From positions 8,273-72,272 of the forward strand of contig SHYW01000004.1 of the NCBI GenBank assembly GCA_009692615.1: a DNA stretch of 64,000 bases. Reading direction: 5' to 3'. The position numbers were made by a program, and so were the translations under genes. The DNA comes from Deltaproteobacteria bacterium (GTDB lineage: Bacteria > Desulfobacterota > Binatia > UBA9968). Shown here piece by piece: positions 5,071 through 60,944 of this stretch (its first letter is position 1; each line of letters begins with the position of its first letter). The notes beneath the pieces were generated by a model. The model was given only the letters and a program-made list of their open reading frames with translations, did no database searches and had not been told where the DNA came from.

Positions 5071-7343
5071 CCCTAGTCGGGACCAATGTCGAAATGGTCG
5101 GCGGCCGCGCCAAGGTTAGCGGCGCGGTGAGCTATGTCGCCGATATGGAATTCCCAGGCCAGCTTTACGCCAAGGCGCTGCGCAGCCCCTATCCGCACGC
5201 GAAATTGCTGCGCGTCACCGCCAGTAAAGCGGCGGCGCTGCCAGGAGTCCGCGCAGTGGTGACACGCGACGATTTAGCGGGGCTTAATCCTTACTTCGGC
5301 ACCGGCGTCGAAGATCAGCCGGTGGTCGTCATCGACAAAGTTCGCTGCGTCGGCGACATCGTCGCCGCGGTGGCCGCGGACTCAAAAGAAATCGCCGAAG
5401 AAGCGATCACGCTGATCGAAGCCGACTATGAAGAGCTGCCCGCCGCCACCGACATTCTCGCAGCCGCCAAGCCGGGCGCGCCGCTGGTGCAGGAGCAGCA
5501 TGTCGACAAAAACGCCGGCGGCAACATTCACGGCGTCTATCGCGCCGCCAGCGGTGACATCGAGCAGGGTTTCAAAGAATCCGATGAGATCATCGAAAAC
5601 ATTTATCACATTCCGCCCGTGCAGCATGGCCATATCGAACCTCACGTCGTGACGGCGCTGTGGGAGCCCAGCGGCAAGCTGATCGTGCATACGCCGAGCC
5701 AGACGCCGTCGCCGCTGCAAGAGCAGATCGCCAAGGTTTTTAAAATGCCCTTGAACCGCGTGCGCGTCATCGTGCCCTTCATCGGCGGTGGCTACGGCGG
5801 CAAGAACCACGCGCGCATCGAGCCGGTGGTGGCGTTGCTGGCGCGCAAAGCGCGCCGCCCGGTGCAGTGGATTCTCAGTCGCGAGGAAGTTTTTCTCACC
5901 GGCCGGCGCTTCGGCGCGGTGGTGAAAATAAAAACCGGCTTCAAGCGCGACGGCCGGCTATGGGCGCGCAAGGTCGAAGCCTGGTACGACATGGGCGCCT
6001 ACGCGCTGTCGGGTCCGGCGAACACGAAGAACGCGGCCATCATCGCGGGCGGCCCCTACAACATTCCCCATCGCGACTACACCACTTACGCGGTTTACAC
6101 CAACCTGCCGCCCGCCGGTCCCTACCGCGGCGTCGGCGCGTCCCATGTTTGCTGGGCCTATGAATCGGACCTCGACGACATCGCCCGGCGCTGCAACCTC
6201 GATCCGTTGGCAGTACGGCTGAAAAATCTAATTCAAGAGAACGACCGCTTCATCACCGGTGAAGCGATGATTTCCGTCGGGGTTTCGCAATGCGTCAAGC
6301 AGGTCGCGGAATCCATCGGCTGGCAAACGGGAGCGGAGCAGTCCTCGCGAAGCGATACGATTGTCCGAGGCAAAGGCCTCGCCGTCGCGATCAAGAGCAC
6401 TTCGACACCGAGCACCTCTGCCGCCAGCGTGCGGCTTAACGCCGACGGCTCGGCGGTCTTGCTCACCAGCACCTCCGACATGGGCCAGGGCGCGCAGACC
6501 GCGTTGGCACAGATCGTCGCCGATGAATTGGCGCTACCCTTCGAGCGCGTCACCGTGACTTTCCCCGATAGCGATATTACGCCCTACGACAAATCCACCA
6601 GCTCCAGCCGAGCGACCTTTCACATGGGCAAAGCGGCGCAGCTCGCCGTCGGCCAGATTCGCGATCAATTGTTTCAAGCGGGAGCCAAAGCCCTCGAAGC
6701 CCGGGTCGAAGACTTGGAGTTGCGCGATAGCCGATTGCAAGTAAAAGGCGTACCGGAAAGAAGTCTCACCTACCCGCAGCTCTTCAAAGCGATCTACGGA
6801 GAGGCCAGCGGCAGCCTATTTGGCAGCCATACATTGCGCACCGAAGGCGGCATCGATGCCCAGGGGCATGGCAAAGGTTCGTCGTTTTGGTTTTACTCCG
6901 CCGCCAGCGCCGAAGTCGAAGTAGACACCGAGACCGGCAAAGTCCGCGTCCTCCAAGTCGCCAGCGCCGTCGATGTCGGCAAAGCGGTGCATCCGATTCA
7001 ATGCGGCCTGCAAAACGAAGGCTCGGCGCTGGCCGGATTGGGCTCGGCGTTATTTGAAGAGATGCGCTACGACAACGGCCAGCCGATCAACAGCAGTTTT
7101 CTCGATTATCTCTTGCCGTCGATGCTCGATCATCCCGGTGAATTTAACTCGCTGCTCGTGGAAACGCCCCATCCCGACGGTCCCTACGGCGCCAAGGGCA
7201 TGGGCGAAGCGGCGCTACCACCGATGGCGCCGGCAATCGGTAACGCCATCGCGAACGCATTGAACGGCGTACGCGTGCGCGATCTGCCGGTGAAGCCAGA
7301 CAAGATCGTCGCCGCTTTGAGCGCGAGTAAAAAGAGAAGCTGA
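5067..7343 (+). CDS. xanthine dehydrogenase family molybdopterin-binding large subunit
   Basis: 758 aa with aldehyde oxidase/XDH a/b hammerhead and MoCo-binding domains. The active-site loop reads PYRGVGA (form II/generic), not the AYxCSFR of true CO dehydrogenase. Confidence 0.85.
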   Translation: MTLVGTNVEMVGGRAKVSGAVSYVADMEFPGQLYAKALRSPYPHAKLLRVTASKAAALPGVRAVVTRDDLAGLNPYFGTGVEDQPVVVIDKVRCVGDIVAAVAADSKEIAEEAITLIEADYEELPAATDILAAAKPGAPLVQEQHVDKNAGGNIHGVYRAASGDIEQGFKESDEIIENIYHIPPVQHGHIEPHVVTALWEPSGKLIVHTPSQTPSPLQEQIAKVFKMPLNRVRVIVPFIGGGYGGKNHARIEPVVALLARKARRPVQWILSREEVFLTGRRFGAVVKIKTGFKRDGRLWARKVEAWYDMGAYALSGPANTKNAAIIAGGPYNIPHRDYTTYAVYTNLPPAGPYRGVGASHVCWAYESDLDDIARRCNLDPLAVRLKNLIQENDRFITGEAMISVGVSQCVKQVAESIGWQTGAEQSSRSDTIVRGKGLAVAIKSTSTPSTSAASVRLNADGSAVLLTSTSDMGQGAQTALAQIVADELALPFERVTVTFPDSDITPYDKSTSSSRATFHMGKAAQLAVGQIRDQLFQAGAKALEARVEDLELRDSRLQVKGVPERSLTYPQLFKAIYGEASGSLFGSHTLRTEGGIDAQGHGKGSSFWFYSAASAEVEVDTETGKVRVLQVASAVDVGKAVHPIQCGLQNEGSALAGLGSALFEEMRYDNGQPINSSFLDYLLPSMLDHPGEFNSLLVETPHPDGPYGAKGMGEAALPPMAPAIGNAIANALNGVRVRDLPVKPDKIVAALSASKKRS

Positions 7344-7344
7344 A

Positions 7345-7806
7345 ATGAAACTCTCTATCGCCACGACTATCAATGGCCACAGCCAAGAGTTTCAGGTCAA
7401 CGCAAACCAAACGCTCTTGGAGCTGCTGCGCGACAAACTGAAACTCAAAGGCGCCGTCGAAGGTTGCAGCGTCGGCGTCTGCGGTTCATGCACGGTGTTG
7501 ATCGACGGCAAACCGGTCAGCTCGTGTCTTACCCTGGCGAGCAATATCGAAGACAAACAGGTCATTACTATCGAAGGCCTGTCGCAAAACGGTGAACTCG
7601 ATCCCGTGCAGCAAGCGTTCCTGAAACACCAAGCCTTTCAATGCGGCTTCTGCACCACCGGCATGATCATGGCGGTGAAAGGTTTACTGAACTCCAATGC
7701 CCATCCGAATGAAGAACAAGCGCGAGATTATCTGTCGGGCAACCTTTGCCGCTGCGGCACTTACAAAGAAGTGTTGGCGGCGGTCAAAGAGTTGGCAAAT
7801 AGTTGA
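7345..7806 (+). CDS. (2Fe-2S)-binding small subunit of the molybdenum hydroxylase
   Basis: CSVGVCGSCTV and CGFCTTGMIM..CRCGTY cysteine motifs. Confidence 0.85.
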   Translation: MKLSIATTINGHSQEFQVNANQTLLELLRDKLKLKGAVEGCSVGVCGSCTVLIDGKPVSSCLTLASNIEDKQVITIEGLSQNGELDPVQQAFLKHQAFQCGFCTTGMIMAVKGLLNSNAHPNEEQARDYLSGNLCRCGTYKEVLAAVKELANS

Positions 7807-7890
7807 TAGAAACGGTCACTGGCAGGTTTGCATCTCGCTTGCCAACTTAACTCACCGAGTTTAAACTGCCAAAAGTTCGAGGAAGCTATT

Positions 7891-8142
7891 ATGAAAGCGC
7901 GCATCATTCAAATCGGCAAAGCAAAAGGCGTTCGACTTCCAAATAAATTGGTCAAAGTGGCCCATCTCAGGGAAGAGGTCGAACTCGCAGCGGCACCTGG
8001 GCATATCACTATTCACAGCGCCGCTCGGCCGCGCGCCGGATGGTCGGCCTCAGCCAAGCGCATGCGCGAGCGCGGCGAGGATCGGCTAGTCGCGCCGGTA
8101 CCAGCGACAAAATTCGACGAGGAAGAATGGCGGTGGCGCTAG
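7891..8142 (+). CDS. mazE: AbrB/MazE/SpoVT-type antitoxin
   Basis: MKARIIQIGKAKGVRLPNKLV swapped-hairpin N-terminus. Overlaps the downstream toxin by 16 nt. Confidence 0.6.
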   Translation: MKARIIQIGKAKGVRLPNKLVKVAHLREEVELAAAPGHITIHSAARPRAGWSASAKRMRERGEDRLVAPVPATKFDEEEWRWR

Positions 8143-8468
8143 CTCAAACACCCGCACGCGGCGAAGTCTATTTAGTTCAGCTCGATCCAACGCGTGGAGT
8201 AGAGATCCGGAAAACCAGACCCTGCATCGTCATCTCACCCAATGAACTAAATCAACACCTGCGCACAGTAATTGTCGCGCCTTTGACCACGCAGAGTCAC
8301 GCCTATCCGTGGCGCCCACGCTGCCGATTTCAGGGCAAAGCCGGTTATGTTGTCATCGATCAGCTTCGTACCGTCGACGTCCAACGCTTGACCAAACGAC
8401 TGGGACAAATTCCGCAAAACACGCTTACTACGATACTGAACGTACTCCACGAGATGTTTGCATTTTAA
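8127..8468 (+). CDS. mazF: MazF/PemK family mRNA interferase toxin
   Basis: GEVYLVQLDPTRGVEIRKTRPCIVISPNELN..VIVAPLTT.. is a canonical PemK/MazF core. Confidence 0.7.
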   Translation: MAVALAQTPARGEVYLVQLDPTRGVEIRKTRPCIVISPNELNQHLRTVIVAPLTTQSHAYPWRPRCRFQGKAGYVVIDQLRTVDVQRLTKRLGQIPQNTLTTILNVLHEMFAF

Positions 8469-50129: not shown

Positions 50130-50639
50130 TTATTTCGGAACGGGCCGCTCCGGCGAACCCTCGCCAGTCCCACCGCTGAACCACTTAAATAGCTCCGCGC
50201 ATAAGCCACCGAGCAGGCCGGCGGGGATCAGTGCGGCAAGTGACAAACCGATGAACCATTCGGGCATATCGCTTTCCTTGGCGATGAGCTGCATGAATAG
50301 GCCGAACAGCACCGACCCGACGGCGACCAAGCCGCCATGTTTCATCTCAAGCACTCCCGCCTTATAAGCCGCGTAAAAACCGCCGATTGCCGTACCCAAG
50401 CAACCGAGCAGCAGACTCGCCAACAAACCTTCGCTGGTGAGTAAATAGGCGGCCATCGCTTGCTCATTGGTCGCTGCCCCCTTGCCGATAGCAAAGGCAA
50501 AGTAGAGTTCGAACAAGACATAGCTTGAGATGGTGTCGAGCATCACGCCGGTGACCACTGGGCGTAGTTGAATGCCGGTGAAAAAGCCAGTGGGTTCGAT
50601 GGCGGCGGGGGCTTCGGATTGGCGCGGATCGTATTGCAT
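50130..50639 (-). CDS. hypothetical integral membrane protein
   Basis: 169 aa with about five TM helices. Confidence 0.4.
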   Translation of the reverse strand: MQYDPRQSEAPAAIEPTGFFTGIQLRPVVTGVMLDTISSYVLFELYFAFAIGKGAATNEQAMAAYLLTSEGLLASLLLGCLGTAIGGFYAAYKAGVLEMKHGGLVAVGSVLFGLFMQLIAKESDMPEWFIGLSLAALIPAGLLGGLCAELFKWFSGGTGEGSPERPVPK

Positions 50640-52107: not shown

Positions 52108-52551
52108 TTGTCGCTAACGATTTTTTTCATAATGGTCGCCGCGGCCGCACTGAGCGGCGCACAATTTGGTCCAGGCCCATGGTACATGGCGTTGCACAAA
52201 CCCGCTTGGACTCCACCGAACTGGCTCTTCGCACCGGTTTGGACGGCGCTGTATATCGCCATTGCCGTTGCCGGTTGGTCTCTGTGGCGTTCCAAAGCTA
52301 TTAGCATCACCAAACCCATCCTGATTTGGTTACTGCAGTTGATTCTAAACGCTCTCTGGTCATGGCTCTTCTTTGGACTGCACCGCCCAGATCTCGCATT
52401 GATCGATATCATCGCGTTGCTGGCGGCGATCTGCTGCTTTATCGCGACGGCCCACAAAGCTAGCCAAACCGCCGCGTGGCTATTTCTTCCCTATGCCCTT
52501 TGGGTGGCAATTGCCGCGGCGCTAAATTTGGCGATCTGGCGGCTGAACTAA
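52108..52551 (+). CDS. tspO: TspO/MBR family tryptophan-rich sensory protein
   Basis: ..FGPGPWYMALHKPAWTPPNWLFAPVWTALY.. Trp-rich with five TM helices. TTG start, or ATG at 52132. Confidence 0.8.
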   Translation: MSLTIFFIMVAAAALSGAQFGPGPWYMALHKPAWTPPNWLFAPVWTALYIAIAVAGWSLWRSKAISITKPILIWLLQLILNALWSWLFFGLHRPDLALIDIIALLAAICCFIATAHKASQTAAWLFLPYALWVAIAAALNLAIWRLN

Positions 52552-54483: not shown

Positions 54484-55479
54484 TTGTTTGCACGAGCTTT
54501 GACAATCGTTTTAATTCTAGCTTTCTCCGTCCTCGGACTAGGCCGCGCAGAAGCCCAGCGCCTGCGCGCCGCCAGCGGCGGGCTTTCGGTGATCCATTCG
54601 CTGCTCTGGGTCACCTACGACCAGAAGCTTTTGAAAAAGTACGGATTCGATTTGGAATACATCGCCATCGAGAACGGCACGGTGGGCATGCAGGCATTGA
54701 TTGCCAACGAAGCGCAGTTTCTTTTTTCCACCTCGTCCCTCGCCGTGAGCGCCAACCTACGAGGCTCGGACATCGCCGTGGTCGGCGGCGGATTGAACTT
54801 CATTCCCGACAAACTGATCGTCCGACCGGAGATCAAGCAGCCGGAAGATCTCGCCGGCAAACGTTTGGCGATCAGCCGCTTCGGCTCGTCGTCCGAAGTC
54901 AGCGCCAAGCTCACGCTGGAAAAAGTCGGCGTCAAACCGGAAAGTGTTTCGTTGATTCAGCTAGGCGGCGTTTCCACGCGCCAAGCGGCATTGATGGCCG
55001 GCCAAGTCCAAGCGACGATTTTGAGCGATCCCCAGGCGACGGCGGCGGTCAATGCCGGCATGAAACTTTGGGTCGACTTATCCGAGAGCAAATGGGGCCT
55101 GCCGCGCTTTTGCTTCAACTGCTTCATGGCGAAGCGGAGCTTTCTCGAATCGAATCGCGCCGCCGCCATCGGCTTTCTCAAGGCGGTGATCGAAGGACTC
55201 TATCTGCTTAAAAAAGACAAACCTCTCGGCGTACGGCTGATCAAGAAATATTTGCGTCTGAACGACGAAGCGGCGTCCATCGGTTACGACTTCTATATCG
55301 CCAAACATGGCGAAGGTCTGCTCAGTCTGCCGGAGCGCAAGGGAATGGAATTTGTCATCGCCGAAACCGCCAAAACCAATCCCGCCGCGGCCAAGGCGAC
55401 GCCGGAAAGTCAGCGCCTGGTGGAAGGAAGCTTGCTAGATGAGATTAAAGCCAGCGGCTTTGTCGAGCGCTTCAAGTAA
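54484..55479 (+). CDS. NMT1/THI5/SsuA-like substrate-binding protein
   Basis: Signal peptide, and ..LAGKRLAISRFGSSSE.. Confidence 0.7.
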   Translation: MFARALTIVLILAFSVLGLGRAEAQRLRAASGGLSVIHSLLWVTYDQKLLKKYGFDLEYIAIENGTVGMQALIANEAQFLFSTSSLAVSANLRGSDIAVVGGGLNFIPDKLIVRPEIKQPEDLAGKRLAISRFGSSSEVSAKLTLEKVGVKPESVSLIQLGGVSTRQAALMAGQVQATILSDPQATAAVNAGMKLWVDLSESKWGLPRFCFNCFMAKRSFLESNRAAAIGFLKAVIEGLYLLKKDKPLGVRLIKKYLRLNDEAASIGYDFYIAKHGEGLLSLPERKGMEFVIAETAKTNPAAAKATPESQRLVEGSLLDEIKASGFVERFK

Positions 55480-55588
55480 TCGATCCAAGCGAAAAGCAGA
55501 TGGCAAATCACCGACTCTTTCACCCAGCGATCCCTACAAATAGAGAAGTCTGCGCGCCATTGTCGGTAGAACCAAGAAAGGTGGGCGC

Positions 55589-56902
55589 ATGCAGTTGAAT
55601 CGAGAATCGCTCAAAGATATCTTGATCACCGTCGTCCTGCCGCTGCTCGCGGTGACCGGCGCATTCTGGGTCGCCGCCAAATTCGTCAAGCCCGCGCCGC
55701 CCGATAGTTTTGTTATGACTACCGGTGCCGATGGCGGCGCTTATCATCTGTTCGCGCAACGCTACCGCGACATTCTCAAACGGGAAAAGATCACGGTTAC
55801 GCTGAAACCGTCGGCGGGCTCCATCGACAATTTGCAGCGCTTACAGAAGAGCGACAGCGGTTTTGACGTTGGCTTGATTCAGGCCGGCGTCGTTCTCGGT
55901 GAACCGCCCGCGGGCCTGCGTTCCCTCGGCGCGGTGGCTTACGAACCGTTGTGGATTTTTTATCGCGGCAAAGAAGACCTCGACAAACTGAGTCAGCTCG
56001 CCGGCAAGCGCGTCGCCGTCGGCGCCGAAGGCAGCGGCACCCGCGCCCTCGCGCTGCAATTATTAAAAATTAGCGGCATCGACGGCTCGACCAGCGAACT
56101 GTTACCGATTGGCGGCAATGAAGCGGTAAGCGCGCTCATCGAAGAATCGGTCGACGCCGCGCTGTTGGTCGCGTCAGCCGACGCGCCCACAGTGCAAACC
56201 TTGGCCAAAGCCAAAGACATCAAGCTGGCAAATTTAATCCAGGCCGAAGCGTTCACGCGCCGCTTCCCTTATCTGACCTCCATGCAGTTGCCGCGCGGAG
56301 CCGTCGACATCGCCGCCGACTTGCCGGCGCGCGACGTCACCTTGATCGCCACCACCGCCAACTTGATCGTCAAAGAAGATTTTCACCCGGCGTTGGGCTA
56401 CTTGCTGCTGCAAGCCGCCAGCGAAGTCCACGGCCGCTCCGGCATGCTGCAAAAGGCCGGCGACTTTCCCGCCGCCAAGGAAATTGAATTCGTTCTCGCC
56501 GACGAAGCCAAGCGCTTTTACAAAACCGGCACGCCGTTCTTGCAGCGCTACTTGCCCTTCTGGGTGGCGAATTTAATCGAACGCATGGCAGTGTTGTTGC
56601 TGCCGCTGGTCGCCGTGCTCTTGCCGCTGTTTAAAATTCTGCCGGCGCTGATCCAATGGCGCAACAAATCGCGCCTGTTCAAATGGTACGGCGAGTTGAA
56701 ATATTTGGAAGCCCAGGCCGCGGCCGACCCCGAGGTCGCGCAACTCGGCAACTATCTCCATCGTCTCGACGATATCGAAATCGGCATCAACAATACCCGG
56801 GTGAGCGCAAACTATTCCGACTACGTTTACAACCTGCGTCTCCATGTCAACCTCGTGCGTGATCGGCTGCACAGGATTACCCAACAAAGCCAAACCGGCT
56901 AG
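55589..56902 (+). CDS. TAXI-family TRAP-type solute-binding protein with N-terminal TM anchor and an extra C-terminal TM plus ~90-aa tail
   Basis: TTGADGGAYHLFAQ TAXI glycine motif. The N-terminus is a single TM rather than a cleavable signal. After the binding domain comes a TM (LPFWVANLIERMAVLLLPLVAVLLPLFKILPALIQW) and then a hydrophilic tail. Confidence 0.55.
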   Translation: MQLNRESLKDILITVVLPLLAVTGAFWVAAKFVKPAPPDSFVMTTGADGGAYHLFAQRYRDILKREKITVTLKPSAGSIDNLQRLQKSDSGFDVGLIQAGVVLGEPPAGLRSLGAVAYEPLWIFYRGKEDLDKLSQLAGKRVAVGAEGSGTRALALQLLKISGIDGSTSELLPIGGNEAVSALIEESVDAALLVASADAPTVQTLAKAKDIKLANLIQAEAFTRRFPYLTSMQLPRGAVDIAADLPARDVTLIATTANLIVKEDFHPALGYLLLQAASEVHGRSGMLQKAGDFPAAKEIEFVLADEAKRFYKTGTPFLQRYLPFWVANLIERMAVLLLPLVAVLLPLFKILPALIQWRNKSRLFKWYGELKYLEAQAAADPEVAQLGNYLHRLDDIEIGINNTRVSANYSDYVYNLRLHVNLVRDRLHRITQQSQTG

Positions 56903-56915
56903 GGAGAAATACGCC

Positions 56916-57395
56916 ATGATCAAAGGACTGCATCACAGCGCCTACCGTTGCCGCGACTCGGAACAGACGCGCAAGTTCTACGAAGATTTTCTCGGCTTGA
57001 AATTGGTCGGGTCCCTGGCGATCAAAGACCGGCCGAAACTTGCCAAGAGCAACGTGCTGCACACCTTCTTTCAGATGGACGACGGATCGTGCTTGGCATT
57101 TTTCGAAGCTCTGGACATGCCCTTCGAGTTCAAAGCGCAACAAGATTTCGACTTGCACATCGCCTTGGAAGTCGACGAACCGACGCTGCACGCGATGTTC
57201 GCCAAGGGAAAAGAACAGGGCATCGATACCCGCGGCATCGCCGACCACGGCATGGTGCACTCGATTTACTTCCGCGATCCCAACGGCTACGTCGTCGAGC
57301 TAACGACAAAAATGCCAAGCCACGACGAAGCGATGAATCCGGCAACGAACAAGGCCCGCGCGATCCTCGACGACTGGCAGCAAATGAAAGCGTAA
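56916..57395 (+). CDS. VOC family protein
   Basis: MIKGLHHSAYRCRDSEQTRKFYEDFLGLKLV.. Confidence 0.65.
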   Translation: MIKGLHHSAYRCRDSEQTRKFYEDFLGLKLVGSLAIKDRPKLAKSNVLHTFFQMDDGSCLAFFEALDMPFEFKAQQDFDLHIALEVDEPTLHAMFAKGKEQGIDTRGIADHGMVHSIYFRDPNGYVVELTTKMPSHDEAMNPATNKARAILDDWQQMKA

Positions 57396-57502: not shown

Positions 57503-58719
57503 CTATTCCGCCAAACGCTTAAGGCGCGCGCCGAGGAAGATGTAACCGACCAGCGCCAAGACGATCGCACCCGCGGCGATGGCGATGGGCGCGCTGGTCC
57601 ATTCGGCGACGAATCCTGCTTGCATGCCGCCCAACTCGCGCAAGCCGCCGCCGGTGAGACCGTAAAATCCCGACACTCGCCCACGATACGATTCCTCGAC
57701 GCGTAACTGAATCGATGTATTGAGCAAGGTTTCGAACACCGTGCTGAGCGCGCCGACGACGACCAACGTGGCAAACGCAAGCCAAGCAACCGTGTTAAGC
57801 GCGAAGAAGCACAGGCAGATCGAAAACGCCAACAACAGCGCAACCAAGATCGGTCGGCGTGATCGCACGCGGCCGACTGACGCCAAGGTCAATGAACCGA
57901 TGATCGTGCCAAGGCCGGGACCGGCGGAGATGAAACCGAATCCCGACGCGCCGACGTGCAGAACTTCCTTGGCGACCACCGGCAGCAAAGTAATGTAGGA
58001 GCGGCCAAAAATATTGAACAGCGCCGATACCGAGAGAAAAGTCATGATGATGCGCTCGCCGCGCACGTAGGTAAACGCCGGCTCAAACTCTCCAACACGC
58101 TGGACTTCGGCGCCTCGACATTTTTCGGGACATGCATGCGCAGCAGCGCGCCGATGACCGCGAGATAGCTGATAACGTTGGCGTAGAAACAGCCGTCGAT
58201 GCCGATGTAAGCGACGGAAACGCCGACCAGACTCGGACCGATCAATCCCGCGCCGTTCCAAGTGAGTGCGTTTAAAGCGATGGCATTGACCAACACGTCG
58301 CGATCGACCAACTGCGGCAGCAGCGCTTGGCGCACCGGCTGTTCGAAGGCCCAGGTCGTCGAAGTGATCGCGCCAAGCACGAAGATATGCCAGACGCGGA
58401 TCGAATCGGTCGAGATCAGCAGCGCCAACACCAGCGCGGTCAGCGCGGCGATGATTTGAATCGCCAGCAACACCTTGCGCCGGTCGATACGATCGGACAT
58501 GACGCCGCCGAGAATAAAAAAGCTCAGCAGCAAGACCATGCGCAGCGAACTGAACAGACCAAGATAAAGCGGCGACGCGGTGAGATCGAAGAGCAGCCAG
58601 CCCATGGCGATGCTCTGCATCCATGAGCCGACGTTGGAGACGAAGTAGCTCGACCAAAACCAAAAATAGTTGGGATAACTGAGTGCGCGAAAGGCGCCGG
58701 AGCTGCGATCGAATTTCAA
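57503..58719 (-). pseudogene. MFS transporter with frameshift in the TM6-TM7 loop
   Basis: The N-terminal half (58042-58719, good MFS up to ..LRMHVPKNVEAPKS) and the C-terminal half (from ..EFEPAFTYVRGERIIMTFLS, 57503-~58100) lie in different frames. The shift is at about 58085-58110. Confidence 0.5.
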
Positions 58720-58782: not shown

Positions 58783-59757
58783 TCACGGAACCTTGTAGCC
58801 CAACTCCTTCGCCACTTCTCGGGCGATGCGGTCGTCGGCGATCTCGTCGAAGGCGACCTTGCGATCGGTGAATTGACCGGCGGCTTGGAGCGACTTCATA
58901 ATCAAGTCCATCCCCTCGTGCGTCGGCACGCCGCTACCGCTGACGGTCTTTTTAAGAGCGTCGTAAGTGTCCTCCGCCGCCTCTTTATCGACCTGCAAGT
59001 ATTTCAACATCAGCGCCGTGGCTTTTTCCTTGGAGCGCAGCACTTCTTGCTTGGCCAATTGCAGCGAGCGCAGCACGCGCTTTACTTCGTCGGGACGGTT
59101 GCGGAGCGTCGACACCATGGTGGTCAAGCCGCCCAGCGGCATTTTTACTTTCGAGCCGACATCGAGCACTTCGCGAAAACGTTTCTTCTTAGCGTAAAAA
59201 TCGAAGGGCGGGCTGAACATCGCCGCCTCGACAGTGCCGGTTTCCAACGCCGGCAGCATCTGCGCCGCACCGAGCACGACGTAAACGAAATTCTTCGGAT
59301 TCTCCCCGGCGGCTTCGAGGGCGATCTGCAGGGCGACATGTGACGTGCCGCCGAGCCCCGTGATACCGATTTTCTTGCCGCGCAGATCGCGCAGATTCGG
59401 TATCTCGGGGCGGGCCATCAGGGAATAAATCAACTGGTCCGAGGCAAACCACACGCCGCGCGACTGCATGCCGCGCAAAGTGGCGGTTACGGAAGCCGGC
59501 CCGACGCCGGTGAAATATTGAATCTCGTTGGCCATCATCGCCATATTGCCGATCTGCGAACGGATCTGCACGATCTCGACATGCAACCCGTTCTCCTCGA
59601 AAATCTTCCATTGAATTCCGCCGTACAAAGCCAAACAGCAAATACCGCCGCTCGGATAGGCGACACGGATTTTACGCAGCTCCTGCGCGCTCGCCGCCGC
59701 GGCGAACCCGCCAAGCAAGGCGATGACGATCGCCCGACGAAACAATTTTCTGTGCAT
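58783..59757 (-). CDS. NMT1/THI5/SsuA-like substrate-binding protein
   Basis: Signal peptide, and ..LRGKKIGITGLGGTSH.. Confidence 0.7.
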   Translation of the reverse strand: MHRKLFRRAIVIALLGGFAAAASAQELRKIRVAYPSGGICCLALYGGIQWKIFEENGLHVEIVQIRSQIGNMAMMANEIQYFTGVGPASVTATLRGMQSRGVWFASDQLIYSLMARPEIPNLRDLRGKKIGITGLGGTSHVALQIALEAAGENPKNFVYVVLGAAQMLPALETGTVEAAMFSPPFDFYAKKKRFREVLDVGSKVKMPLGGLTTMVSTLRNRPDEVKRVLRSLQLAKQEVLRSKEKATALMLKYLQVDKEAAEDTYDALKKTVSGSGVPTHEGMDLIMKSLQAAGQFTDRKVAFDEIADDRIAREVAKELGYKVP

Positions 59758-59923: not shown

Positions 59924-59993
59924 GCGAAACTGAATCACTACCCGCCTTTGGCATTAGTTGACAGTCTCCTCACGCCCATGTTTAGTGACCGTC

Positions 59994-60944
59994 ATGCGCA
60001 GCAAGATTTTCTTTCTGGCCCTGCTCCTGCTCTTTGACAGTTCCCCAGCGTTCGCCCAACTGAAAAAAGTTCGCTTCTCGGTGAGCGCCGCATCCATCGC
60101 CGAACTGCCCTTTCGCATCGCCCATGTCAAAGGCTTCTATCGCGAAGAAGGGCTCGACGTCGAAGTGATCTTCATTCGCGGCGCGGTGGGCATGCAGGCG
60201 TTGCTCGGCGGCTCGGTGGATTTCACCTCGGCGTCGGGCTCGACCATCGCGGCGGCTGTGCGCGGTATCCCAGTGAAATTAGTTTTCATCGCCTCGGCCA
60301 AACCGCAGTTCGACATGGTCGCGCAAAAAGAGATTCGCTCGATGAACGACCTCAAAGGCAAATTCGTCGGCATCTCGTCGCGCGGCGGCGCCATCGATTT
60401 GCTTACTCAACTGATGGTCCAGAAACATGGCTTAACGCCGAACAAAGACGTCACCAGCCTGGTCATCGGCGGGCAAGAAGACACGGTGCTGGCGCTGCGC
60501 GCCGGCCGCATCGCCGCGGCGTTATTGACTCCGCCCCGGCCGTTGATATTGCAGCGCGAAGGTTTTAACCGCATCGGCTATTCCGGCGACTACATGCCGA
60601 CCTACCCGAGCGGCGGCATCGGCGTCACCGATGAGACGATCAAGAGCAAAACGCCGGAACTGCAAGCCTTCGTCAAAGCCAGCGTGCGCGGCTTGCAATA
60701 CGCCCGGCAAAATCGCGCCGACGCGAAAAAGCTCGTCGCCGATTATTTCGCCATCAAAGACGCCGCCCTGGCCGAGCAATTTTTCGACTTGTACTTGAGC
60801 CGCCTGCCGGTGAACGGTTCCGCCGACGAAGCCTGGATGAAAGGCGCCATCGAGTTCACTCAAAAGAGTTTAGGCGACGCATCCAAGGAAGCGAGCATGA
60901 GTCAAGTTTTCGATTTCAGTTTCGTGAATCGTGCGGTGCGATAA
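59994..60944 (+). CDS. NMT1/THI5/SsuA-like substrate-binding protein
   Basis: Signal peptide MRSKIFFLALLLLFDSSPAFA, and ..LKGKFVGISSRGGAID.. Confidence 0.7.
   Translation: MRSKIFFLALLLLFDSSPAFAQLKKVRFSVSAASIAELPFRIAHVKGFYREEGLDVEVIFIRGAVGMQALLGGSVDFTSASGSTIAAAVRGIPVKLVFIASAKPQFDMVAQKEIRSMNDLKGKFVGISSRGGAIDLLTQLMVQKHGLTPNKDVTSLVIGGQEDTVLALRAGRIAAALLTPPRPLILQREGFNRIGYSGDYMPTYPSGGIGVTDETIKSKTPELQAFVKASVRGLQYARQNRADAKKLVADYFAIKDAALAEQFFDLYLSRLPVNGSADEAWMKGAIEFTQKSLGDASKEASMSQVFDFSFVNRAVR

Follow-up and report, generated by a model that had tools for sequence, protein, structure and literature searches.

The subject of this analysis is one open reading frame (ORF) in a window of 64,000 nucleotides, the whole stretch of contig SHYW01000004.1 of a Deltaproteobacteria bacterium that was analyzed. 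The ORF lies at 55589..56902 on the forward strand and encodes, in 437 amino acids (aa) plus a stop codon, a TAXI-family protein with two transmembrane (TM) helices and a cytoplasmic tail. An earlier reading made from the letters alone (the sequence-only reading) had presented it as an unusual single protein; it is instead an ordinary member of a very large family, in which a TAXI domain is followed by a conserved C-terminal module, and its gene is an orphan, without a conserved transporter or signalling neighbor. The anatomy given in that reading (a first TM segment, a complete TAXI domain, a second TM segment and a cytoplasmic tail, all within 437 aa) was confirmed by hydropathy, an AlphaFold2 (AF2) model, Pfam model PF16868 and alignment to PDB structures. 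The hydrophilic C-terminal region that it described is present as well, with a length of about 80 aa (residues 357-437) and not about 90. The GC content at third codon positions of the ORF is 0.74, against a GC content of about 0.56 for the window, and an identical protein is already recorded as a 'TAXI family TRAP transporter solute-binding subunit' of a Deltaproteobacteria bacterium metagenome-assembled genome (MAG). The features are given below, all on the forward strand; conservation is the mean frequency of the commonest residue per region among 62 full-length representatives, which are 31-48% identical to the window protein.

55589..56902 (+): whole ORF, recognized by family models, homology, hydropathy and the AF2 model
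55541..55588 (+): remnant of an Arg-rich N-terminal cytoplasmic extension, in-frame RSLRAIVGRTKKGGR, recognized by comparison with homolog N-termini
55577..55585 (+): Shine-Dalgarno-like AAAGGTGGG, read directly from the sequence, 3 nt before the ATG
55619..55678 (+): TM1, residues 11-30, a poorly conserved signal anchor (hydropathy, AF2 helix 5-32; conservation 0.37, the lowest of all regions)
55691..55702 (+): P-A-P-P linker from TM1 to the TAXI domain, residues 35-38 (P35, P37 and P38 at least 90% conserved)
55706..56527 (+): periplasmic TAXI (cluster-F, two-lobe) solute-binding domain, residues 40-313 (PF16868, TIGR02122, PDB alignment, Foldseek; conservation 0.50)
56528..56584 (+): periplasmic juxtamembrane segment GTPFLQRYLPFWVANLIER, residues 314-332 (conservation 0.76, the highest of all regions)
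56585..56656 (+): TM2, residues 333-356 (hydropathy, AF2; conservation 0.57), with conserved P339, P346, P352 and basic K349
56657..56899 (+): cytoplasmic part, residues 357-437, with the motif WRxKSRxFxWY and then helices to 379, 383-402 and 407-436 (conservation 0.71 for the juxtamembrane motif, residues 357-368, and 0.43 for the remaining tail, residues 369-430)

The TAXI domain was recognized by sequence and by fold. PF16868 (NMT1_3) matches residues 43-279 with an E-value of 4.8e-22 (79.3 bits against the Pfam threshold of 27), and the NCBIfam model TIGR02122 (TRAP_TAXI) gives a borderline match (86.3 bits; cutoff 84.35). In the PDB sequence search, the TAXI structures 8u79 and 1us4 align with the query up to its residue 313, which corresponds to residue 313 of 318 in the Thermus chain, and at about this residue the window protein shows the '...AKRFYKT' helix with which TAXI domains typically end. 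Because the alignment runs this far, the binding domain is complete and ends at about residue 313, and the C-terminal hydrophobic stretch lies outside the fold, as the sequence-only reading had supposed. The fold itself was recognized in a Foldseek search of the PDB with the AF2 model of the 437-aa protein (22 family sequences, mean predicted local distance difference test score 84.6), in which the TAXI structures 4ddd, 8s4j, 9ibo, 1us4, 8u79 and 9ibp rank first, with E-values of 1e-15 to 4e-19 and template-modelling scores of 0.69-0.77 relative to the target.

The binding cleft has also been kept. In the TAXI protein VcGluP, the alpha-amino group of glutamate is bound by Y45, Q93 and E125, and the alpha-carboxyl group by S75 and the backbone of G156 (PMC11574862). 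In a profile alignment, Y45, S75, Q93 and E125 correspond to Y52, S78, Q98 and E119 of the window protein, and the G156 region to the loop S149-G150-T151, so that all of these pocket residues are retained; D157 and Y200 of VcGluP have no retained counterpart. The frequencies of these residues in the family are 0.90 (Y52), 0.68 (S78), 0.95 (Q98), 0.97 (E119) and 0.87-0.97 (the S149-G150-T151 loop). Since the residues of the type that hold the alpha-amino and alpha-carboxyl groups in VcGluP are retained, the pocket is likely to accept a small molecule whose head group is of the amino-acid or carboxylate type. In VcGluP, domain 1 contains both chain termini; by homology, both membrane anchors of the window protein would hang from the same lobe, domain 1, and domain 2 would be the mobile lobe.

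The two hydropathy peaks on the Kyte-Doolittle scale, at residues 11-30 and 333-356, coincide with helices of the AF2 model, which places one helix at 5-32, one long helix at 324-379, and two more at 383-402 and 407-436. The extension of TM2 and the cytoplasmic tail are modelled together as an antiparallel three-helix bundle, in which L393, Y414, L416, R417 and H419 are conserved. Most homologs carry 25-40 additional Arg-rich residues at the N-terminus. Among the 62 family members, the n-region in front of TM1 has a median of 15 residues and a net positive charge, and the uncharged stretch a median of 21 residues; in the window protein, TM2 is followed by the basic juxtamembrane motif WRNKSRLFKWY. 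By the positive-inside rule, the charged n-region and this motif predict a topology with the N-terminus inside, the TAXI domain in the periplasm and the tail inside. The first 40 residues, read directly from the sequence, contain no Cys and thus no lipobox. The sequence-only reading had taken the N-terminal TM segment to be uncleaved. At the family level, an uncleaved signal anchor is supported and a cleavable signal peptide was rejected, as the putative signal-peptidase -1 position is mostly Tyr or Phe; the window protein alone has a sequence, WVAA|K, that is compatible with signal peptidase I, and the claim is less secure for this one protein than for its relatives.

Behind the TAXI domain, residues 314-437 contain no known domain in Pfam or NCBIfam at E ≤ 1. 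PDB searches by single sequence and by profile returned TAXI domains only, plus a chance coiled-coil match with an E-value of 3.7e-4. The domain search of the cytoplasmic part revealed no HAMP, DHp/HisKA, HATPase, MCPsignal, GGDEF or other transmitter domain.

The first homology search yielded 3,198 matches. The 120 matches listed are 52-84% identical to the window protein, and nearly all of them cover 95-100% of it, tail included (the exceptions, at 79% and 86%, are a 344-aa fragment and a partial alignment) and have lengths of 435-496 aa (the outliers being the 344-aa fragment and a 578-aa protein). For the C-terminal module, a profile built from the last 124 residues only was searched against 1.84 billion representative proteins; at E ≤ 1e-3 it matched 2,150 clusters (50% identity), and at E ≤ 1e-10 it matched 1,220. 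In complete proteins, which have 425-503 aa, the module is located at about residues 315-445 and always behind a TAXI domain. Stand-alone or differently fused forms of the module were considered and rejected: the short matches, which begin within the final TAXI helix ('AERYYKSG.PF...'), represent fragments of genes. As all of the complete proteins are TAXI fusions and the short matches are fragments, the module is specific to the fusion with TAXI. The window protein carries the three motifs of this two-TM family, FLQRYLPFW at 317-325, WRxKSRxFxWY at 357-367 and Y..LR.H at 414-419.

At least 582 GTDB species genomes encode the module, and the homologs with the same C-terminal extension that the sequence-only reading had proposed to look for form a large family. 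They are distributed over at least five phyla, Pseudomonadota, Myxococcota, Desulfobacterota, Nitrospinota and Methylomirabilota. Besides 'Deltaproteobacteria' MAGs close to that of the window, the carriers in GTDB include many Burkholderiales, Rhodocyclales (Zoogloea, Azonexus, Dechloromonas and Accumulibacter), the Gammaproteobacteria Halioglobus, Halopseudomonas and Neptunomonas, Alphaproteobacteria, Myxococcota, Desulfobacterales, Nitrospinaceae and Methylomirabilota. The module is also encoded on chromids or plasmids of Caballeronia, Burkholderia, Cupriavidus metallidurans CH34 and Roseovarius. The automatic annotations of the family read 'TRAP transporter solute-binding subunit', 'ABC transporter substrate-binding protein' or 'C4-dicarboxylate ABC transporter substrate-binding protein'.

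The Pseudomonas aeruginosa homolog (451 aa; positions 7001-8356 of the locus extracted from CP109682.1) likewise shows both TM helices and the tail. As its 90% cluster comprises 668 members, seen on 1,000 contigs or more, it is probably a core gene; CP109682.1 is labelled 'plasmid', while its sequence looks chromosomal. The gene adjoins yejK/ndpA. It is presumably PA3848, an identification that takes pcs to be PA3857. In the literature, yejK/ndpA is PA3849 (PMC9927451), and PA3848, a hypothetical protein, is found among the outer-membrane vesicle proteins conserved across strains (PMC6347270) and among the genes differentially expressed in a pppA-ppkA mutant, with a fold change of 1.93 (PMC3224232).

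The translation start of the window ORF differs from that of longer homologs. Upstream of the ATG (55481-55588), the frame of the ORF reads ...SPSDPYK*RSLRAIVGRTKKGGR-M, a sequence that shows homology to the Arg-rich extension carried by homologs of 459-475 aa. This remnant is interrupted by an in-frame TAG at 55541-55543, and the ancestral 'MA..' start, an ATG at 55500, falls in a different frame. The lineage of the window thus seems, like several 437-aa homologs, to have lost the N-terminal extension and to use an internal Met behind a good Shine-Dalgarno sequence. A scan for promoters and terminators around the gene gave no signal better than in shuffled sequence. The interrupted extension, together with the origin of the window from a MAG, might raise the suspicion that an error of gene calling or assembly has fused a normal TAXI gene to unrelated downstream sequence. 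However, the same full-length architecture occurs in thousands of independent sequences, including those of Zoogloea, Azonexus, Cupriavidus and P. aeruginosa, and it recurs in complete genomes and isolates, by which we consider an artefact excluded, its probability being negligible.

Conservation is unevenly distributed over the protein. The two juxtamembrane segments on either side of TM2 are the best conserved regions, ahead of TM2 and of the TAXI domain, and the positions of the module that are at least 90% conserved are G314, P323, W325, A327, R332, P339, P346, P352, W357, Y367, L393, Y414, L416, R417 and H419. This pattern makes a passive tether unlikely, and we infer that the juxtamembrane/TM2 module is more than that. 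Because TM2 is conserved and TM1 is variable, the pattern further suggests that TM2 contacts something besides TM1, which could be the TM2 of a second copy or some other membrane protein.

By analogy with GluR0 and the ionotropic glutamate receptors, TM helices of several identical subunits might form a ligand-gated channel or carrier: each subunit combines a domain like that of binding proteins with two TM helices, TM2 is strongly conserved, and 1us4, the Thermus TAXI structure, entered the PDB as a 'putative GluR0 ligand binding core'. Against this, the TAXI domain is continuous from residue 40 to 313 and is not split by TM segments, and there is no pore loop. TM2 is purely hydrophobic save for one basic residue near its cytoplasmic end, TM1 is not conserved, and both linkers leave domain 1 and not the mobile lobe. 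We rejected such a channel on the composition of the TM helices and the positions of the linkers, and regard it as very improbable.

The genomic context was analyzed by clustering all predicted neighbors within 8 kb on either side of the gene at 84 related loci. No neighbor family was found in more than 17 of the 84 loci, and the commonest ones are lineage-specific housekeeping genes. In Burkholderiales, where it has a DinG/PhoD neighborhood, the gene is flanked by two methyltransferase genes on one side and by a convergent DinG helicase gene on the other, with phaC-phaR close by; in Rhodocyclales, its vicinity contains ssb, uvrA and an MFS gene. The close same-strand neighbors in other phyla differ: they encode an MltF-like protein, MFS, GlmM, CDF, a CarH-like regulator or unknown proteins. 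Of 44 polytopic neighbors at these loci, 20 were picked to cover most clusters and scanned by Pfam; they belong to MFS, FtsX, SulP, Kup, ClC, NhaA, APC and other families, and none of the 20 is a DctM or DctQ. The sequence-only reading had noted that no DctQ/DctM-like component is adjacent, and this holds for the whole window, whose polytopic proteins are limited to an ABC permease and MFS transporters. Since no neighbor family is widely conserved and no TRAP permease was seen, the gene is regarded as an orphan.

Several candidates for a partner encoded nearby were considered. The MFS proteins recur in varying position and orientation, and the family is too common to count. The translationally coupled downstream genes of a Myxococcaceae locus and a Desulfosarcina locus are mutually unrelated. 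In 11 Rhodocyclales loci of Dechloromonas, Azonexus and Accumulibacter (L033, L040, L041, L057, L067, L068, L071, L078, L079, L085 and L086), a gene for a 208-aa ATPase of the ParA/MinD/MipZ type stands directly downstream on the same strand; this ATPase is a possible cytoplasmic partner in Rhodocyclales, as a lineage-specific feature. On the Roseovarius plasmid pTHAF9_a (6986-8263 of locus L089) and on a Burkholderia vietnamiensis plasmid (6968-8260 of locus L090), the family member is present as a single gene, and no transporter gene was found near it on these two conjugative or large plasmids. The B. vietnamiensis plasmid has a diguanylate cyclase gene about 3 kb upstream, an isolated case of a signalling gene.

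The protein might have become a scaffold or envelope protein that no longer binds a small ligand, with the TAXI fold as an interaction or structural module and the cytoplasmic bundle as a link to a housekeeping machine. The single-copy, core-gene-like occurrence in housekeeping neighborhoods (ssb/uvrA in Rhodocyclales, DinG/PhoD in Burkholderiales and yejK in Pseudomonas) would suit this idea, as would the ParA-like ATPase of the Rhodocyclales, and the TIGR02122 score barely above its cutoff indicates a divergent TAXI branch. However, the ligand-contact positions Y52, Q98, E119 and S149-G150 are among the most conserved of the family, a pattern that makes sense only if the protein continues to bind a ligand, and a scaffold of this kind is therefore improbable.

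If a ligand is bound, the protein may still serve transport. In this alternative it would be a doubly tethered transport receptor, docked by the juxtamembrane/TM2 module to a secondary transporter that is encoded in trans, for example a fused permease of the TAXI-TRAP type or, as in TAXI-GltS, some other carrier of the elevator type, and would deliver its ligand there. All characterized TAXI proteins are transport receptors, the pocket residues are kept, and TAXI proteins can pair with non-TRAP carriers (PMC12344293); membrane anchoring is described as common among TAXI binding proteins, as far as Roden et al. 2023 is cited in PMC11574862. The attachment of both termini to domain 1 would fix the orientation of the cleft, as in binding domains fused to transporters, and the contrast of a conserved TM2 with a variable TM1 would suit docking to a heterologous partner in the membrane. 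On the other hand, binding-protein genes are normally in an operon with their permease (PMC12344293), whereas no conserved transporter gene adjoins the present gene at the 84 loci from many phyla or in the window, and the gene travels alone on plasmids. A folded and conserved cytoplasmic domain, moreover, has no obvious role in a periplasmic shuttle. We hold a transport receptor of this kind to be the main alternative, although on the unlikely side.

How the protein relates to known systems is best seen from the canonical TAXI proteins, VcGluP (VC0430, 8s4j), Thermus TtGluBP (1us4 and 8u79) and the Ehrlichia 'immunogenic protein' (4ddd). They share with it the cluster-F fold, the family models and the Y/S/Q/E residues; however, they have about 300-330 aa, end after the '...RYYKE.G' helix and are encoded beside a fused DctQM permease, whereas the window protein has 124 more residues (juxtamembrane segment, TM2 and bundle), a signal anchor in place of a cleaved peptide or lipobox, and an orphan gene. 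TAXI binding proteins usually have 300-350 aa and are soluble, secreted or lipid-anchored (PMC12344293). By sequence and fold the window protein is a TAXI protein, and it departs from the type in size and domain composition, in the mode of export and anchoring, and in linkage to TRAP genes. In the membrane-anchored TAXI system of Proteus mirabilis (Roden et al. 2023, as cited in PMC11574862 and PMC12344293), the TAXI domain is likewise tethered to the cytoplasmic membrane, by what the citing papers describe as a lipid anchor, and the tether raises the local concentration for an adjacent permease; the window protein differs from it by a second, conserved TM helix, a cytoplasmic domain and the absence of an adjacent permease. 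BP0403 of the TAXI-GltS system, which was first noticed and singled out as an unusually long TAXI protein (PMC12344293), is likewise a TAXI protein with extra modules, and is a precedent for a non-TRAP partner. It is a lipoprotein dimer with extra periplasmic domains at the N-terminus and is translationally coupled to gltS, whereas the present family has its module at the C-terminus and no conserved neighbor.

Sensor kinases, chemoreceptors and diguanylate cyclases have the same order of TM helix, periplasmic domain, TM helix and cytoplasmic part, with a conserved second TM helix and juxtamembrane region (PMC8050422). The window protein differs from them in having only a three-helix bundle of about 80 aa and no cognate regulator gene nearby. 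For a receptor of this reduced form, a parallel may be drawn with PbgA/YejM, which resembles it as a periplasmic binding domain on a membrane anchor, encoded by a single housekeeping-type gene and effective through a partner encoded elsewhere. PbgA/YejM is a membrane sensor/adaptor without an output domain that acts through protein contacts. There is no relationship in sequence or fold between the two, and the analogy is limited to a possible mode of action.

Among these readings we favor, tentatively and at something short of even confidence, that the TAXI protein is a ligand-binding transmembrane receptor or adaptor coupled to a partner encoded elsewhere. It would be an integral inner-membrane receptor built on the TAXI Venus-flytrap domain, with a periplasmic pocket for a small amino-acid- or carboxylate-type ligand. 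Domain 1 would be pinned to the membrane by both chain ends, and domain 2 would close over the ligand. The closed or occupied state might then be read out through the conserved juxtamembrane/TM2/cytoplasmic module, by contact with a partner protein, in the membrane or in the cytoplasm, whose gene lies elsewhere, and perhaps also by self-association. Such a protein would be a receptor or adaptor without an output domain, and would not shuttle a ligand, in diffusible or lipid-tethered form, to an adjacent TRAP permease.

Several points weigh against this receptor reading. If both termini lie on the same lobe, as homology indicates, there is no obvious coupling of the piston or scissor type, because closure of the lobes would not pull TM1 against TM2 in the manner of classic sensors. 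The TAXI proteins characterized so far all function in transport (PMC11574862, PMC12344293). The 84 loci have no conserved signalling neighbor, contrary to the suggestion that homologs might neighbor signalling genes, and the search for a partner by clustering the neighbors of these loci found none, only lineage-specific synteny. The AF2 models, finally, are of monomers and were built from shallow alignments of 19-22 sequences. The statement of the sequence-only reading that the protein resembles a sensor more than a transport receptor thus has the topology, the lack of a nearby TRAP system and the atypical architecture in its favor, and the missing signalling neighbors and the attachment of both termini to domain 1 against it; it is a plausible and reasonable hypothesis, not a finding.

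The neighbors of the gene in the window form a synteny that is common to close relatives: a gene for an NMT1-type binding protein upstream, a glyoxalase/VOC gene downstream, and then a split MFS gene and two more genes for NMT1-type binding proteins. The three NMT1/SsuA-type (PF09084) genes (54484-55479 on the forward strand, 58783-59757 on the reverse strand and 59958-60944 on the forward strand) all lie in a stretch of 6.5 kb around the TAXI gene and have no adjoining ABC permease or ATPase gene, and they constitute a local cluster of orphan binding proteins. The glyoxalase/VOC ORF (56844-57395, forward strand) overlaps the TAXI gene by 59 nt with its listed start; its true start is likely the Met of 'MIKGLHH', at about 56916, 14 nt past the TAXI stop codon, and the two genes may be co-transcribed. 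At another locus (L001), the homolog is followed by a GST gene and then a glyoxalase gene. The MFS_3/MFS_1 transporter gene (57503-58719, reverse strand) is split into overlapping ORFs of 225 aa and 386 aa. As the same split (180 + 225 aa) is also called on an independent ENA contig, it represents a frameshifted or split gene and not an error specific to the window. Upstream, two small membrane proteins are encoded at 50130-50639 (reverse strand) and 52108-52551 (forward strand), one with a weak DUF3792 match and the other called TspO/MBR on the ENA contig.

We found no description of the two-TM TAXI architecture in the literature searched; the survey of TAXI anchors by Roden et al. 2023 may mention such proteins. 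The sequences are already in the databases as TAXI subunits; the architecture, its conservation and the orphan status of the genes appear to be undescribed. The current annotations as transporter subunits probably mislead attempts at metabolic reconstruction. Among the TRAP binding proteins, no branch is less well understood than the TAXI proteins, and here a whole family departs from the picture of a 300-350-aa shuttle. It is possible, though doubt still outweighs belief in so broad a claim, that the two-TM TAXI proteins are an unrecognized and widespread class of transmembrane receptors without a classical output domain, in which the Venus-flytrap domain would sense an amino-acid-like metabolite and act on a partner or housekeeping process through the proline-rich TM2 and the three-helix bundle; the class would include a core gene of P. 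aeruginosa that is mis-annotated as a transporter subunit. The family can be tested in genetically tractable hosts such as Pseudomonas and Cupriavidus. If it signals, it would be a new type of receptor, one that escapes censuses of signal transduction that rely on domains; should it serve a transporter in trans, it would represent a new way to wire a binding protein to a carrier.

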